The notes below the pieces were generated by a model. That model did not search any database. It saw only the letters and a list, made by a program, of their open reading frames with translations, and was not told the DNA's origin. The translations under genes and the position numbers were made by a program. This document shows positions 32,228-33,626 of a stretch of 64,000 nt of DNA, piece by piece. Location of the stretch: NCBI GenBank assembly GCA_964291285.2, contig OZ219788.1, forward strand, positions 576,001-640,000, given 5' to 3'. Every line of letters starts with the position of its first letter. Positions within the stretch are counted from its first letter, which is position 1. This stretch comes from Alphaproteobacteria bacterium (lineage in GTDB: Bacteria > Pseudomonadota > Alphaproteobacteria > Bin95).

Positions 32228-32261
32228 TTTATGCGCGATAGCTTTCACTATCGCGCATAAT
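32228..32261 (+). other. loxP-format recombination site A (13-8-13)
   Basis: TTTATGCGCGATA GCTTTCAC TATCGCGCATAAT. Confidence 0.85.
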
Positions 32262-32427
32262 CTTGTCAATATTCCATCATGCTCGCCGGCCAGCCGCAAC
32301 CGCAACAGGGCACAGCATTTCGCCCCAGGCCGGCATCAACCCGTTGAAACAGGACGATTCTTCAGGCTTGGACCGGTCCCGTCCGGGCCCCGCCGGCACG
32401 GCACCGGCCCGCCGGCCCACGCCGATT

Positions 32428-32442
32428 TTTACGCTCGATAGC
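32428..32442 (+). other. isolated lox-like half-site
   Basis: TTTACGCTCGATA-GC, identical to the outer arm of site B (reverse complement) plus the first two spacer bases. Confidence 0.6.
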
Positions 32443-32570
32443 ATTTCTTGAATCCACGCCTGTCCGGCGCGCACGGGCCCGATTTCGACTGCTAAACCAC
32501 TGCACCCGTCGTCAAAGACCATCCTAGCATTGTGGTCCGACGGCAGCCTCCGTGCATCCCCTGGGGCAAT

Positions 32571-33554
32571 TCAGCCGCGCCCCTGCATCCGGGCCAACTG
32601 CGCCGCACCGCTGCGCCTCGCGAGCAGCCGCTCGCCGTAGCGGTTGACCATCGCGGTCGACTTCCACCGGCCCGCATGAAGGATTGAAGGCAGCTCGATG
32701 CCGGCGGCGACCATGTCCTGCGTCGCGCCGACCCGGGCGCTGTGTCCCGACAAGCCCGCCGCCACAGTCTCCGGCAAGCCGGCCTCGCGCGCCATCGTCT
32801 TGATAATGCGCGGCACCTGGCAGGGATGCAGCCCGTCGCCGATCCGCCCGCTCTTGCCCACCGAACGGAACAACAGTCCCTCCGAAATCCCGGCGCGGTC
32901 GAGCCACGCCCGGACCAGGCGGACGGTGTCCCGCCCGACCCAGACGATCTCGCCCCTGCCTTCGCAATCGGTCTTGGAGCGCCGGACCAGCAGGCTGCCG
33001 TCGCCCGGCATTTCTTCAAACAGGTCGGAGACTTGCAGGGAGACCAGCTCCGTCCGGCGCAGCATCGCATCGTAGGCGACGGCAAGCAGGGCCCGGTTGC
33101 GGTCGTCGAGGAGTCTCTCGCCCGCCGCCTCCAGCAGGCGTTGGCGCAGCGGCCATGTCAGTCCCGTCGCCTGGTCCTGCCGGCGCCCCTTCTTCCGGTG
33201 CATGCGCTGGAGCGCCAGCCGCACCGGCGGGCTCTTGAGCGTCTTTTCCAGCCCAAGCGCCCGGTGGGCGATGGCGATGCTGGTGACGTAGCGGCGCACC
33301 GTGGCGGGCGCCCGCTCCTCCGCCCTGGCGTCGATGAAGGAGGCGACGGTCTCCGGCCTGGCCGGCAGCGCTCGTTCCCCGCGTTCGGCGCACCACTCGG
33401 CGAAGATGGCGAGATCGGACCTGAGCGCCCGTTCGGTGCTGTCGCTGAACGCGCCGCGCGCCGCCCGGACGAACTGTCCGAGCTGTTCGGCGAGCGCCGC
33501 TTCCCGGTCCGCCGCCGACTCCTCACAGGCGTTGAACGGGGGTTCAAGGAACAT
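32571..33554 (-). CDS. Cre-like tyrosine recombinase
   Basis: SAM-like N-domain; catalytic set MLRR..E (R), RSKTD (K), GHSAR (HxxR), GRW (W as in Cre), VNRY (Y). Confidence 0.92.
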   Translation of the reverse strand: MFLEPPFNACEESAADREAALAEQLGQFVRAARGAFSDSTERALRSDLAIFAEWCAERGERALPARPETVASFIDARAEERAPATVRRYVTSIAIAHRALGLEKTLKSPPVRLALQRMHRKKGRRQDQATGLTWPLRQRLLEAAGERLLDDRNRALLAVAYDAMLRRTELVSLQVSDLFEEMPGDGSLLVRRSKTDCEGRGEIVWVGRDTVRLVRAWLDRAGISEGLLFRSVGKSGRIGDGLHPCQVPRIIKTMAREAGLPETVAAGLSGHSARVGATQDMVAAGIELPSILHAGRWKSTAMVNRYGERLLARRSGAAQLARMQGRG

Positions 33555-33592
33555 TCAGGGGCCTCCGGACCGTCCGCACACAGGAGCCCCGG

Positions 33593-33626
33593 ATTACGCG
33601 CGATAGTGAAAGCTATCGAGCGTAAA
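33593..33626 (-). other. loxP-format recombination site B (inverted relative to A)
   Basis: Reverse complement TTTACGCTCGATA GCTTTCAC TATCGCGCGTAAT; 31/34 identical to A with an identical spacer. Confidence 0.85.

Follow-up and report, generated by a model that had tools for sequence, protein, structure and literature searches.

A probable inversion cassette with a Cre-type tyrosine recombinase gene between two inverted lox-like sites

Cre-type enzymes are known mainly from plasmid and phage resolution systems and as laboratory tools, and the natural role of Cre is dimer resolution or cyclisation. Hin belongs to the serine recombinases and depends on an enhancer and on Fis, and the fimS element has short inverted repeats. 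In the FLP/FRT system of the yeast 2-micron plasmid the gene of a simple tyrosine recombinase lies between two inverted 13-8-13 sites, and the enzyme inverts its own gene; in that system the plasmid is eukaryotic, the repeats are 599 bp long and the process serves copy-number amplification. For Cre-type enzymes, the accessible part of one survey gives GATA beside the spacer as a feature of active sites (PMC10250229, Jelicic et al., 2023). That survey looked for a single palindrome no more than 1 kb from the gene, and its supplements list about 500 candidate pairs, which may include the family treated here. Paired inverted sites are not mentioned in the accessible part of its text (PMC10250229). 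Within the partly accessible literature that we searched, no description was found of a Cre-type self-inverting cassette, of inversion switches in sponge-associated bacteria, or of control by phase variation, in uncultured bacteria, of giant proteins of the cadherin, fn3 and Calx-beta types.

We analyzed a stretch of 64,000 nucleotides from an alphaproteobacterial contig, hereafter the window. Two 34-bp lox-like sites of the 13-8-13 format were read from it. Site A, at 32228-32261 on the + strand, is TTTATGCGCGATA-GCTTTCAC-TATCGCGCATAAT, and site B, at 33593-33626 on the - strand and read as its reverse complement, is TTTACGCTCGATA-GCTTTCAC-TATCGCGCGTAAT. They are in inverted orientation, have the same 8-bp spacer and are identical at 31/34 positions, the mismatches being positions 5, 8, and 30. 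A preliminary description of this DNA had claimed two inverted sites with a shared spacer and a compensatory change between them. The first claim was borne out when the sequence was re-read and searched with a degenerate pattern, and the second by positions 5 and 30 being a mirror pair. The degenerate 34-mer pattern was found in exactly two places in the window, A and B, with no matches in 100 dinucleotide-preserving shuffles. The 12-nt arm pattern occurred five times compared to 0.26 expected, namely in the four arms and in one extra half-site at 32429-32440. Chance is no explanation for the site pair. The arm sequence is presumably unlike loxP. A Cre-type system is characterized by palindromic arms of 13 bp that flank an asymmetric spacer of 8 bp near the gene, and an inverton by a segment between inverted repeats and a recombinase gene close by; both were found here. 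The 34-bp format, the GATA beside the spacer and the position near the gene are shared with the Cre-type systems described in the accessible part of PMC10250229, whereas two inverted sites surround the gene here, together with a half-site, compared to one site there.

The gene between the sites (32571-33554, - strand) is intact and encodes 327 aa, as judged from Pfam, alignment to Cre and codon periodicity. Its start and the inner edge of B are 38 nt apart, in agreement with the distance given previously. The protein matched Phage_integrase (6.3e-13) and weakly Phage_int_SAM_1, with no further Pfam families; the serine recombinase catalytic domain of the Hin/Gin family was absent by the same search. 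The best solved relative was Cre, with 1.2e-24 over residues 31-312, and the next non-Cre chain was XerD with 1e-4. Residues R166, K194, H271, R274, W297, and Y306 align with R173, K201, H289, R292, W315, and Y324 of Cre and were invariant in 19 relatives. The Cre-type R-K-HxxR-W-Y active site proposed earlier is thus upheld by Pfam, by the Cre alignment and by this invariance. By these comparisons the protein is a Cre-type tyrosine recombinase with intact catalytic residues. Cre being the closest solved relative and the six catalytic residues make up the likeness to Cre/loxP of phage P1, Vika/vox, Dre/rox, and the YR enzymes in the accessible part of PMC10250229.

A second full copy, with a recombinase 85% identical, is located on another contig of the same genome (C3:437047-438443). 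The C3 copy has the layout found in the window and a different 6-bp overlap, CTGTCG compared to CTTTCA in the sites of the window. Many further family members were found in MAGs of Alpha- and Gammaproteobacteria and on contigs from metagenomes. Several of these loci are on contigs of 4-5.9 Mb, and there are several copies, together with truncated copies, per genome. The often chromosomal and multi-copy context sets the family apart from the Cre-type systems. Block identity between copies is mosaic. The distribution is patchy: members were present in 7 of the 16 other species of the genus to which the window belongs, in none of 20 genomes from two sister genera, and in none of 44 other families searched. 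Among more distant relatives (≤55% identity; L059-L119), 23 of 61 loci had one palindrome upstream of the gene, and the same scan gave no pair. In a plasmid collection the best protein match was 51% identical and carried generic names only, and the plasmid loci L120 and L121 had no 13-8-13 palindrome at ≥11/13. One sponge metagenome run (n = 1) contained close relatives of the recombinase gene, and 17 further sponge, coral or marine runs contained small shares of the stretch, on which no claim about habitat is based.

An automated scan of the window, the C3 copy and the fetched loci gave 29 loci with both an upstream and a downstream site, which are not all independent, with near-duplicates in L040/L041 and L010/L027. 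In all 29 loci the two spacers had identical central 6 bp, in inverted orientation, and 12 different 6-mers were represented. When site partners were shuffled among loci the mean was 8.5 matches, and the maximum in 10,000 trials was 16. Within loci the arms differed at 101/754 positions, spacer positions 1 and 8 at 18/58 and the central six at 0/174; from one locus to another, the difference in the central six was 26% per position. Extra pairs with matching overlaps were identified by eye (L029, L042/43, L047, L048, and L049/55/57), and the pair was kept, with a different spacing, at 57-59% protein identity (L056 and L058). In L047 both sites (overlap CTGTGA) surround a mini-cassette that lacks most of its recombinase gene. 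A full recombinase copy lies just outside this mini-cassette, and an adhesin-like gene begins outside the B-type site. Paired sites therefore persist even with the recombinase gene outside them, and the layout of L047, with the recombinase outside a segment of ~0.33 kb, resembles that of fimS.

On this comparative evidence partner sites share their overlap. Since the central six match across 12 variants, the two sites are marked as strand-exchange partners, and inversion would be the expected outcome for inverted sites; the comparison argues strongly that A and B are such partners. Of the earlier proposal of a self-inverting ~1.36-kb cassette, the partnership of A and B thus stands (29/29 overlaps, 0/174 mismatches), and inversion itself is what we infer from it. 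The cassette most likely serves as a switch that flips.

The assembled orientation was compared between loci. In 23 of 25 loci, and in both copies in the genome from which the window comes, a conserved noncoding tail outside A was located downstream of the recombinase gene and on its strand. In L021 (1/25) the tail was found on the upstream side of the recombinase in inverted form, and the break coincided with the site. This locus is without the inner noncoding part and the second site, and is no clean flip. The claim that the present orientation predominates is therefore supported among assemblies, whereas the argument from matched arms on which it was based does not generalize, as the arms of one site often differ in other loci. 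The sequencing runs that contain the stretch consist of assembled contigs; none spans A or B with 31 letters on each side and no strand-changing joint was found, which is neutral with respect to inversion. In runs X21-X23 pieces break and resume in both sites or next to them. The loose end at 33625 matches the flank of the C3 paralogue, so that these breaks are explained by the second copy. A homologous neighbor gene is located on opposite sides in L056 and L051-53; this was rejected as a flip, since L051-53 are without lox-like sites.

The genes next to the cassette were also compared. For 24 of the 29 loci, the predicted gene nearest to B on its outer side was on the opposite strand. Ten of 12 family genes scanned in this position had Calx-beta, Cadherin-like, fn3, SWM_repeat, He_PIG or LRR domains, while the Pfam scan of neighbors gave no match in the remaining two (L016 and L058). 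GGAGG-like motifs and start codons were found just outside B in the family, often within ~25 nt, which leaves scant room for a promoter outside the cassette. Outside B in the window are a short ORF, a LysR HTH fragment, and genes for a porin, a lipoprotein and a Slam protein, with no giant adhesin gene among these neighbors. The window copy also adjoins a gene for a TrwC-type relaxase. An adjacent gene for a surface structure, as expected for an inverton, was accordingly present in most of the relatives scanned; for the window itself the genes to be named are those for the porin, the lipoprotein and the Slam protein.

We consider it probable that 32228-33626 (1.4 kb) is a self-contained inversion cassette that, in the family, acts as an on/off switch for the gene outside B. 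The anatomy, the intact catalytic residues and the co-evolution of the overlaps are observed and form the basis of this reading, from which inversion and the switch role would follow. The Cre-type recombinase, encoded inside the segment, would bind both inverted 34-bp sites, and strand exchange across the central 6 bp would flip the whole segment, recombinase gene included. In the family the cassette heads a gene that usually reads away from B, mostly one for a giant secreted protein with adhesin-type repeats. With so little space left for a promoter beyond the cassette, an on/off switch for the outside gene is the most likely use, and it may work like the H segment of Salmonella.

A candidate for an outward-facing control element at the A end is a TTGACA box at 32264-32269 (- strand), 2 nt inside site A and facing outward through A, which was exact in 24 of 29 paired loci. 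It may be the -35 of an outward promoter. It would face the noncoding tail in the assembled orientation and the neighboring gene after a flip. A promoter scan found no E. coli-type -10 near the box, and promoter and terminator scans of the surroundings of the cassette, run on the window and on L008, gave no sigma-70-type promoters at either site. An EcfG-type or sigma-54-type promoter read by eye was dropped, as the motifs were not conserved. The box is part of a noncoding region between the recombinase stop and site A (32262-32570, - strand), which was delimited by family alignment. The same region contains the internal half-site, a lone arm TTTACGCTCGATA at 32428-32440 (+ strand) that was identified by the arm-pattern search and the family alignment and has no partner arm. 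Its position is conserved, and its sequence tracks the arms of the full sites in relatives (e.g., L014). A conserved motif, TTCAACGGGTTG, with the palindromic core TCAAC-GG-GTTGA, is located at 32337-32348 (- strand) and was identical in 8 of 10 aligned loci; it is a possible site for an accessory protein. The conserved half-site and the other motifs of the cassette hint that accessory contacts may exist. The motif TCAACGGGTTGA, the half-site at 32428-32440 and the tail were grouped as accessory parts.

Several of these observations would also fit a mobile element, in which the cassette, or a 2.1-kb block including the tail, moves, with the lox-like sites as terminal inverted repeats and the recombinase as transposase or cassette-exchange enzyme. 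Full and truncated copies are found together in single genomes, homology stops abruptly on the outer side of B and where the tail ends, and the patchy distribution, the relatives in both Alpha- and Gammaproteobacteria and the mosaic identity between copies point the same way, as does the different context of the window copy beside a relaxase gene and an insertion sequence (IS). However, target-site duplications were absent, the longest direct match between flanks averaging 3.3 nt compared to 3.25 nt in shuffled pairings (29 loci). Simple integration by a tyrosine recombinase leaves direct and not inverted sites, the side and orientation of the cassette towards the adhesin-like gene are constant in most loci, and the L047 mini-cassette has both sites without an internal recombinase gene. 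We therefore regard this explanation as unlikely. We give even less credit to an explanation without inversion, in which one site would serve, as in Cre/loxP, to resolve replicon dimers or cointegrates, and the other would mainly be an operator through which the recombinase represses its own gene or a neighbor. It would account for the single upstream palindrome of the distant relatives, for the best plasmid-borne relatives being ~50% identical, for the TrwC-type relaxase gene beside the window copy, and for B overlapping the sole space for a recombinase promoter. An operator, on the other hand, needs no spacer whose central 6 bp track those of a partner through 12 variants; furthermore, many members are on chromosome-sized contigs, and the inverted orientation and the spacing are conserved.

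The switch reading may hold for the family and still not for the window. The window copy is atypical, being without an adhesin neighbor and having an IS in the conserved tail, with sites and gene intact. Given the missing adhesin neighbor, the adjacent relaxase gene and the IS, it may be a displaced family member. That it is an orphan which has moved away from its adhesin gene and controls nothing is a doubtful but serious alternative. It agrees with the lack of a giant gene outside B, with the tail being split by an IS256-type element with an 8-bp duplication, and with an inner noncoding part that is only 59-63% identical to those of C3 and L008, compared to 83% between these two. It agrees less well with the intact recombinase ORF and its catalytic residues, with two intact sites with identical spacers, with the presence of the TTGACA box and the half-site, and with porin, lipoprotein and Slam genes that read away from B.

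As a probable inversion switch based on a tyrosine recombinase the cassette belongs to a known kind; new are the Cre-type enzyme and the position of its gene inside the segment. The layout is shared with the Hin/hix H segment of Salmonella: the recombinase gene is inside the segment, the opposite end has an outward control element (here a candidate), and a gene for a surface protein follows outside. It differs in that Hin is a serine recombinase working with an enhancer and Fis, whereas the enzyme is a Cre-type tyrosine recombinase here and the promoter only a candidate. With FimB/FimE-fimS and other tyrosine-recombinase invertons (PMC6083910, accessible part) the family has in common the type of recombinase, the inverted repeats and the adjacent adhesin gene; it differs by its full 34-bp lox-like palindromes and by an enzyme that is usually encoded inside the segment and is closest to Cre. 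The resemblance to FLP/FRT is one of layout, i.e., a recombinase gene between inverted 13-8-13 sites, and the family loci are largely chromosomal compared to a eukaryotic plasmid there. Relative to Cre, the proposed role is inversion and not dimer resolution or cyclisation.

A Cre-type enzyme and its site appear here to be used as a self-inverting chromosomal switch, with a layout that Hin, an unrelated serine invertase, also has. Dozens of natural enzyme/site variants are found in the family, with at least 12 overlaps and several variants of the arms, which change as the enzyme does, and these are ready material for orthogonal recombinase tools and for the evolution of arm and overlap specificity. 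If the switch reading is true, giant cadherin-, fn3- and Calx-beta-type proteins would be subject to phase variation in uncultured bacteria. More tentatively, and with less confidence than in an even chance, we suggest that the family consists of portable Cre-type inversion switches, each with its own 6-bp overlap and several independent ones per genome, which toggle giant adhesin-like genes in uncultured, probably host-associated Proteobacteria, the half-site and the 0.7-kb tail biasing one orientation. In that case nature would already hold mutually orthogonal Cre-type recombinase/site pairs with built-in directionality. Overlaps often differ between paralogous cassettes in one genome, and such differences would prevent recombination between them.

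The preliminary description was silent on the second copy, the internal half-site, the IS-cut tail of ~0.7 kb and the adhesin-like neighbors of the family. The block shared by the family starts at the outer edge of B and stops sharply near 30065. Outside A it comprises a proximal (31996-32227) and a distal (30065-30543) conserved noncoding tail, both on the - strand and delimited by family alignment, which amount to ~0.7 kb in total. This tail is without a place in the proposed switch model. The distal part was folded on both strands and gave positive covariation terms, so a structured RNA is unsupported, and an Rfam search of L008 3700-6400 gave one sub-threshold match to a miRNA model inside an ORF (27.6 bits compared to a gathering score of 83). 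The proximal part contains a 12-8-12 palindrome (32027-32058) and a hairpin, CTTGCGCC..GGCGCAAG, at 32181-32207, after which comes a T-rich run on the - strand. For the 80 nt next to A on its outer side, which include the hairpin region, the consensus fold was weak, with four pairs and -1.85 kcal/mol. In the window the tail is split by the IS256-type element (30544-31995, - strand; Transposase_mut 8.1e-120), which is flanked by the 8-bp duplication GTTCCGGG and lies outside the recombinase system.

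Sites A (32228-32261, forward strand) and B (33593-33626, read on the reverse strand) both have the 13-8-13 format in the window sequence. When the window was re-read, the site pair was found as first described, with 13-bp arms, an identical asymmetric spacer, 31 of 34 bases identical and inverted orientation. The 8-bp spacer common to A and B is GCTTTCAC. A degenerate 34-mer pattern matched only these two sites within the window and gave no match in 100 shuffles of it. The arm motif occurred five times in the window vs. 0.26 expected, the fifth occurrence being a lone arm (half-site) inside the cassette (32429-32440).

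The sole real gene between the sites is the recombinase gene (32571-33554, reverse strand), which encodes 327 amino acids and starts 38 nt from B. The protein matches Pfam Phage_integrase (6.3e-13). Among solved structures Cre is the nearest relative (1.2e-24 over residues 31-312), followed among different proteins by XerD at just 1e-4. In the alignment to Cre, residues R166, K194, H271, R274, W297, and Y306 occupy the six catalytic positions, and these were invariant across 19 aligned relatives. The best-supported reading of the sequence is that 32228-33626 would be a self-inverting Cre-type cassette.

Strand exchange by Cre spans the central 6 bp of the spacer, here termed the overlap. The window, the second copy in the same genome and the fetched loci (L numbers; related recombinases from genomes and metagenomes) were scanned automatically, and in 29 of them a palindrome lay on each side of the gene, upstream and downstream. 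The overlap was identical between the two sites, one of them reverse-complemented, in 29/29 paired loci, and twelve distinct six-mers were represented. Re-pairing sites at random among loci gave a mean of 8.5 matches and a maximum of 16 in 10,000 trials. Since near-duplicates were counted (L040/L041 and L010/L027), the 12 overlap types are a fairer unit than the 29 loci. Within loci, A and B differed at 101/754 arm positions, 18/58 outermost spacer positions and 0/174 central positions. Between loci, variability was highest in the central six (26% per position), with 19% in the arms. Further overlap-matched pairs were found by eye in L029, L042/43, L047, L048, and L049/55/57, and are outside the 29-locus counts. 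PMC10250229 works on the presumption that two sites are recombined by a Cre-type enzyme only when their spacers match. The overlap pattern is what this rule would predict if A must recombine with B, and recombination of A with B would result in inversion, the sites being inverted. The arms also vary in step with the enzyme: L014 has TTRCTCGCGATA and L025 has TTACTCCCGATA, and the arm change of L014 recurs in its internal half-site. L029 has a tandem of two overlapping A-type sites (5274-5342) on the downstream side of the recombinase, and the overlap TTAAAG in both matches that of the B-type site there.

A second full cassette is present in the window's own genome, on another contig (C3:437047-438443), with unchanged layout, a different spacer and a recombinase 85% identical. 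A third recombinase copy is a fragment (C3:1415528-1415791, 74% identical over residues 234-327). The one-genome-per-species scan gave 32 loci, all from metagenome-assembled genomes of Alpha- and Gammaproteobacteria. Several of these genomes had two or three copies, and several copies were located on contigs of 4 to 5.9 Mb. In the metagenome scan 469 stretches encoded recombinase relatives, and the 80 best of these were retained. The distribution of the recombinase gene is patchy. At E <= 1e-60 it was found in 7/16 other species of the window's genus, in none of 20 genomes from two sister genera and in none of 44 other families represented by one genome each. L024 and L028 each encode a second, more divergent recombinase (7965-8863 and 8474-8901, respectively), in the same orientation as the first and 3-4 kb further downstream.

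Relatives at 55% identity or less had a single upstream palindrome in 23/61 loci (L059-L119), and no site pair was found in any of the 61. In sequence these more distant relatives do look like ordinary one-site systems, and the paired layout is therefore a derived feature of the window's branch. Each of the metagenomic loci L062-L083 (recombinases about 54% identical) has a single site, upstream of the gene, whose arms are nearly the same (TTTACGCCTGATA) but whose spacer is different in almost all of them; the fetched stretches contained no partner site.

Among the closer copies homology begins exactly at the outer edge of B, spans the gene and site A, and continues past A as a tail of about 0.7 kb with a sharp end at ...GAAGACGGATGCCTTCGGCGCCG (window about 30065). 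The tail of the window is split by an IS256-type insertion sequence (30544-31995; Transposase_mut, 8.1e-120) with the 8-bp duplication GTTCCGGG on both sides. Two further copies of this element, about 96% identical, adjoin the second cassette (C3:439243-440695 and C3:441043-442494). Within the conserved unit only the recombinase reading frame has a coding third-position pattern; the 0.3 kb between its stop codon and A, and the tail, are conserved and noncoding. In 28/28 loci, gene prediction found nothing in the roughly 1 kb that follows the recombinase. Conserved pieces inside the cassette include the half-site, the motif TTCAACGGGTTG and a TTGACA box, which ends 2 nt before A, faces outward and is exact in 24/29 loci. 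Just outside A the tail has a hairpin with a T-rich run, and about 200 nt outside A a 12-8-12 palindrome, AACGCCGCGCAC-GGCTGTCC-GTGCGCGGCGCT (32027-32058). The palindrome is found at the same place in L008, L009, L011-L014, L023, L027, L034, and L037, with a compensatory change in L014 (CAT..ATG). It is lox-like in format, with arms unrelated to the lox-like arms. The tail matched nothing in Rfam, and neither strand gave a convincing consensus fold. One of three sequencing runs (X21, same organism label) carries at full depth a 23-nt insertion at window 32470, in the noncoding part of the cassette, which is absent from the other two runs.

In 24/29 loci the first gene predicted outside B lies on the opposite strand and reads away from B; in two it is on the same strand, and three have no predicted gene there. 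This B-side gene exceeds 850 amino acids in 13/29 loci, most of these running off the fetched stretch. Adhesin-type repeats (Calx-beta, Cadherin-like, fn3, SWM_repeat, He_PIG, LRR or related) were found in 10 of the 12 B-side genes scanned against Pfam, while those of L016 and L058 gave no match. The outer edge of B is often followed, within about 25 nt, by a GGAGG-like motif and a start codon; about 100 nt of leader is shared by a subset of loci. The genes on the tail side are not related to one another between loci. By analogy to the H segment of Salmonella, the most likely use of the cassette would be as a switch for the gene outside B. A 17-nt gap from TTGACA would place a -10 element over spacer positions 3-8 and the transcription start within the outer arm, some 20 nt short of the GGAGG that lies outside B. 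This candidate promoter geometry is attractive; promoter scans around the cassette in the window and in L008 gave no support for a promoter. GCCT tetranucleotide runs are present between B and the adhesin-like gene in L022 (about 3790-3850, about 14 units) and in the leaders of L016 and L047, and could possibly provide a second, slippage-based layer of variation.

In L047 a full recombinase gene is followed by two inverted sites, both with the overlap CTGTGA, enclosing only about 0.33 kb. One end of this segment is the A-end with its TTGACA box; the other has a B-type site, the 5' untranslated region and about 120 nt from the start of a recombinase reading frame. An adhesin-like gene (SWM_repeat, He_PIG, fn3) begins outside the B-type site. 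Thus the site pair and both cassette ends have outlasted the internal gene, with the enzyme now encoded next door, which argues that paired sites are retained because they do something besides carry the recombinase gene. In L021 the tail is inverted and upstream of the recombinase with the break at the site, as expected from a flip. As this locus lacks the inner noncoding part and the second site, it is a rearranged copy and not a clean flip. Of the 25 loci in which a tail with homology to that of another locus could be located, 23 had it downstream on the same strand; the exceptions were L021 and L054, the latter with a short match that is unclear. Both copies in the window's genome, counted separately, also have this arrangement. 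Should the cassette flip, one orientation would be strongly favored or the flipped state short-lived. In the runs, stored as contigs, no piece bridges A or B; the paralogous copy accounts for the breaks.

A transposon-like element is a weaker explanation, as no target duplications were found and the cassette is constantly paired with an adhesin-like gene. Also weaker is an arrangement of one resolution site plus one operator, against which stand the co-variation of the overlaps of A and B and the copies on chromosome-sized contigs. Cre-type recombinases and tyrosine-recombinase inversion switches are both well known. What appears to be new is the combination of a Cre-type enzyme with full lox-like sites in a self-contained invertible unit. 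The conservation across many loci, the locus-specific overlaps and the link to giant adhesin-like genes also appear new. A literature search found no description of such a cassette; the supplements of PMC10250229 may list members as candidate enzyme/site pairs.

The window's own copy differs from its relatives in the gene set outside B. Here a 58-aa reading frame, a 95-aa reading frame (no Pfam match), a LysR HTH fragment, a porin, a 538-aa lipoprotein (no Pfam match) and a Slam-type outer-membrane protein all read away from B, the last three forming a cluster on the forward strand (34907-39213; Porin_4, 1.5e-36; SlipAM, 2.5e-21). A Slam homolog is located outside B in L018 too. On the other side, the gene for a TrwC-type relaxase/helicase of 1444 amino acids (25571-29905, reverse strand; TrwC relaxase, 1.6e-74; AAA_30, 1.2e-47) starts about 160 nt past the end of the conserved tail; the contig is possibly a plasmid, or has an integrated conjugative element within it.
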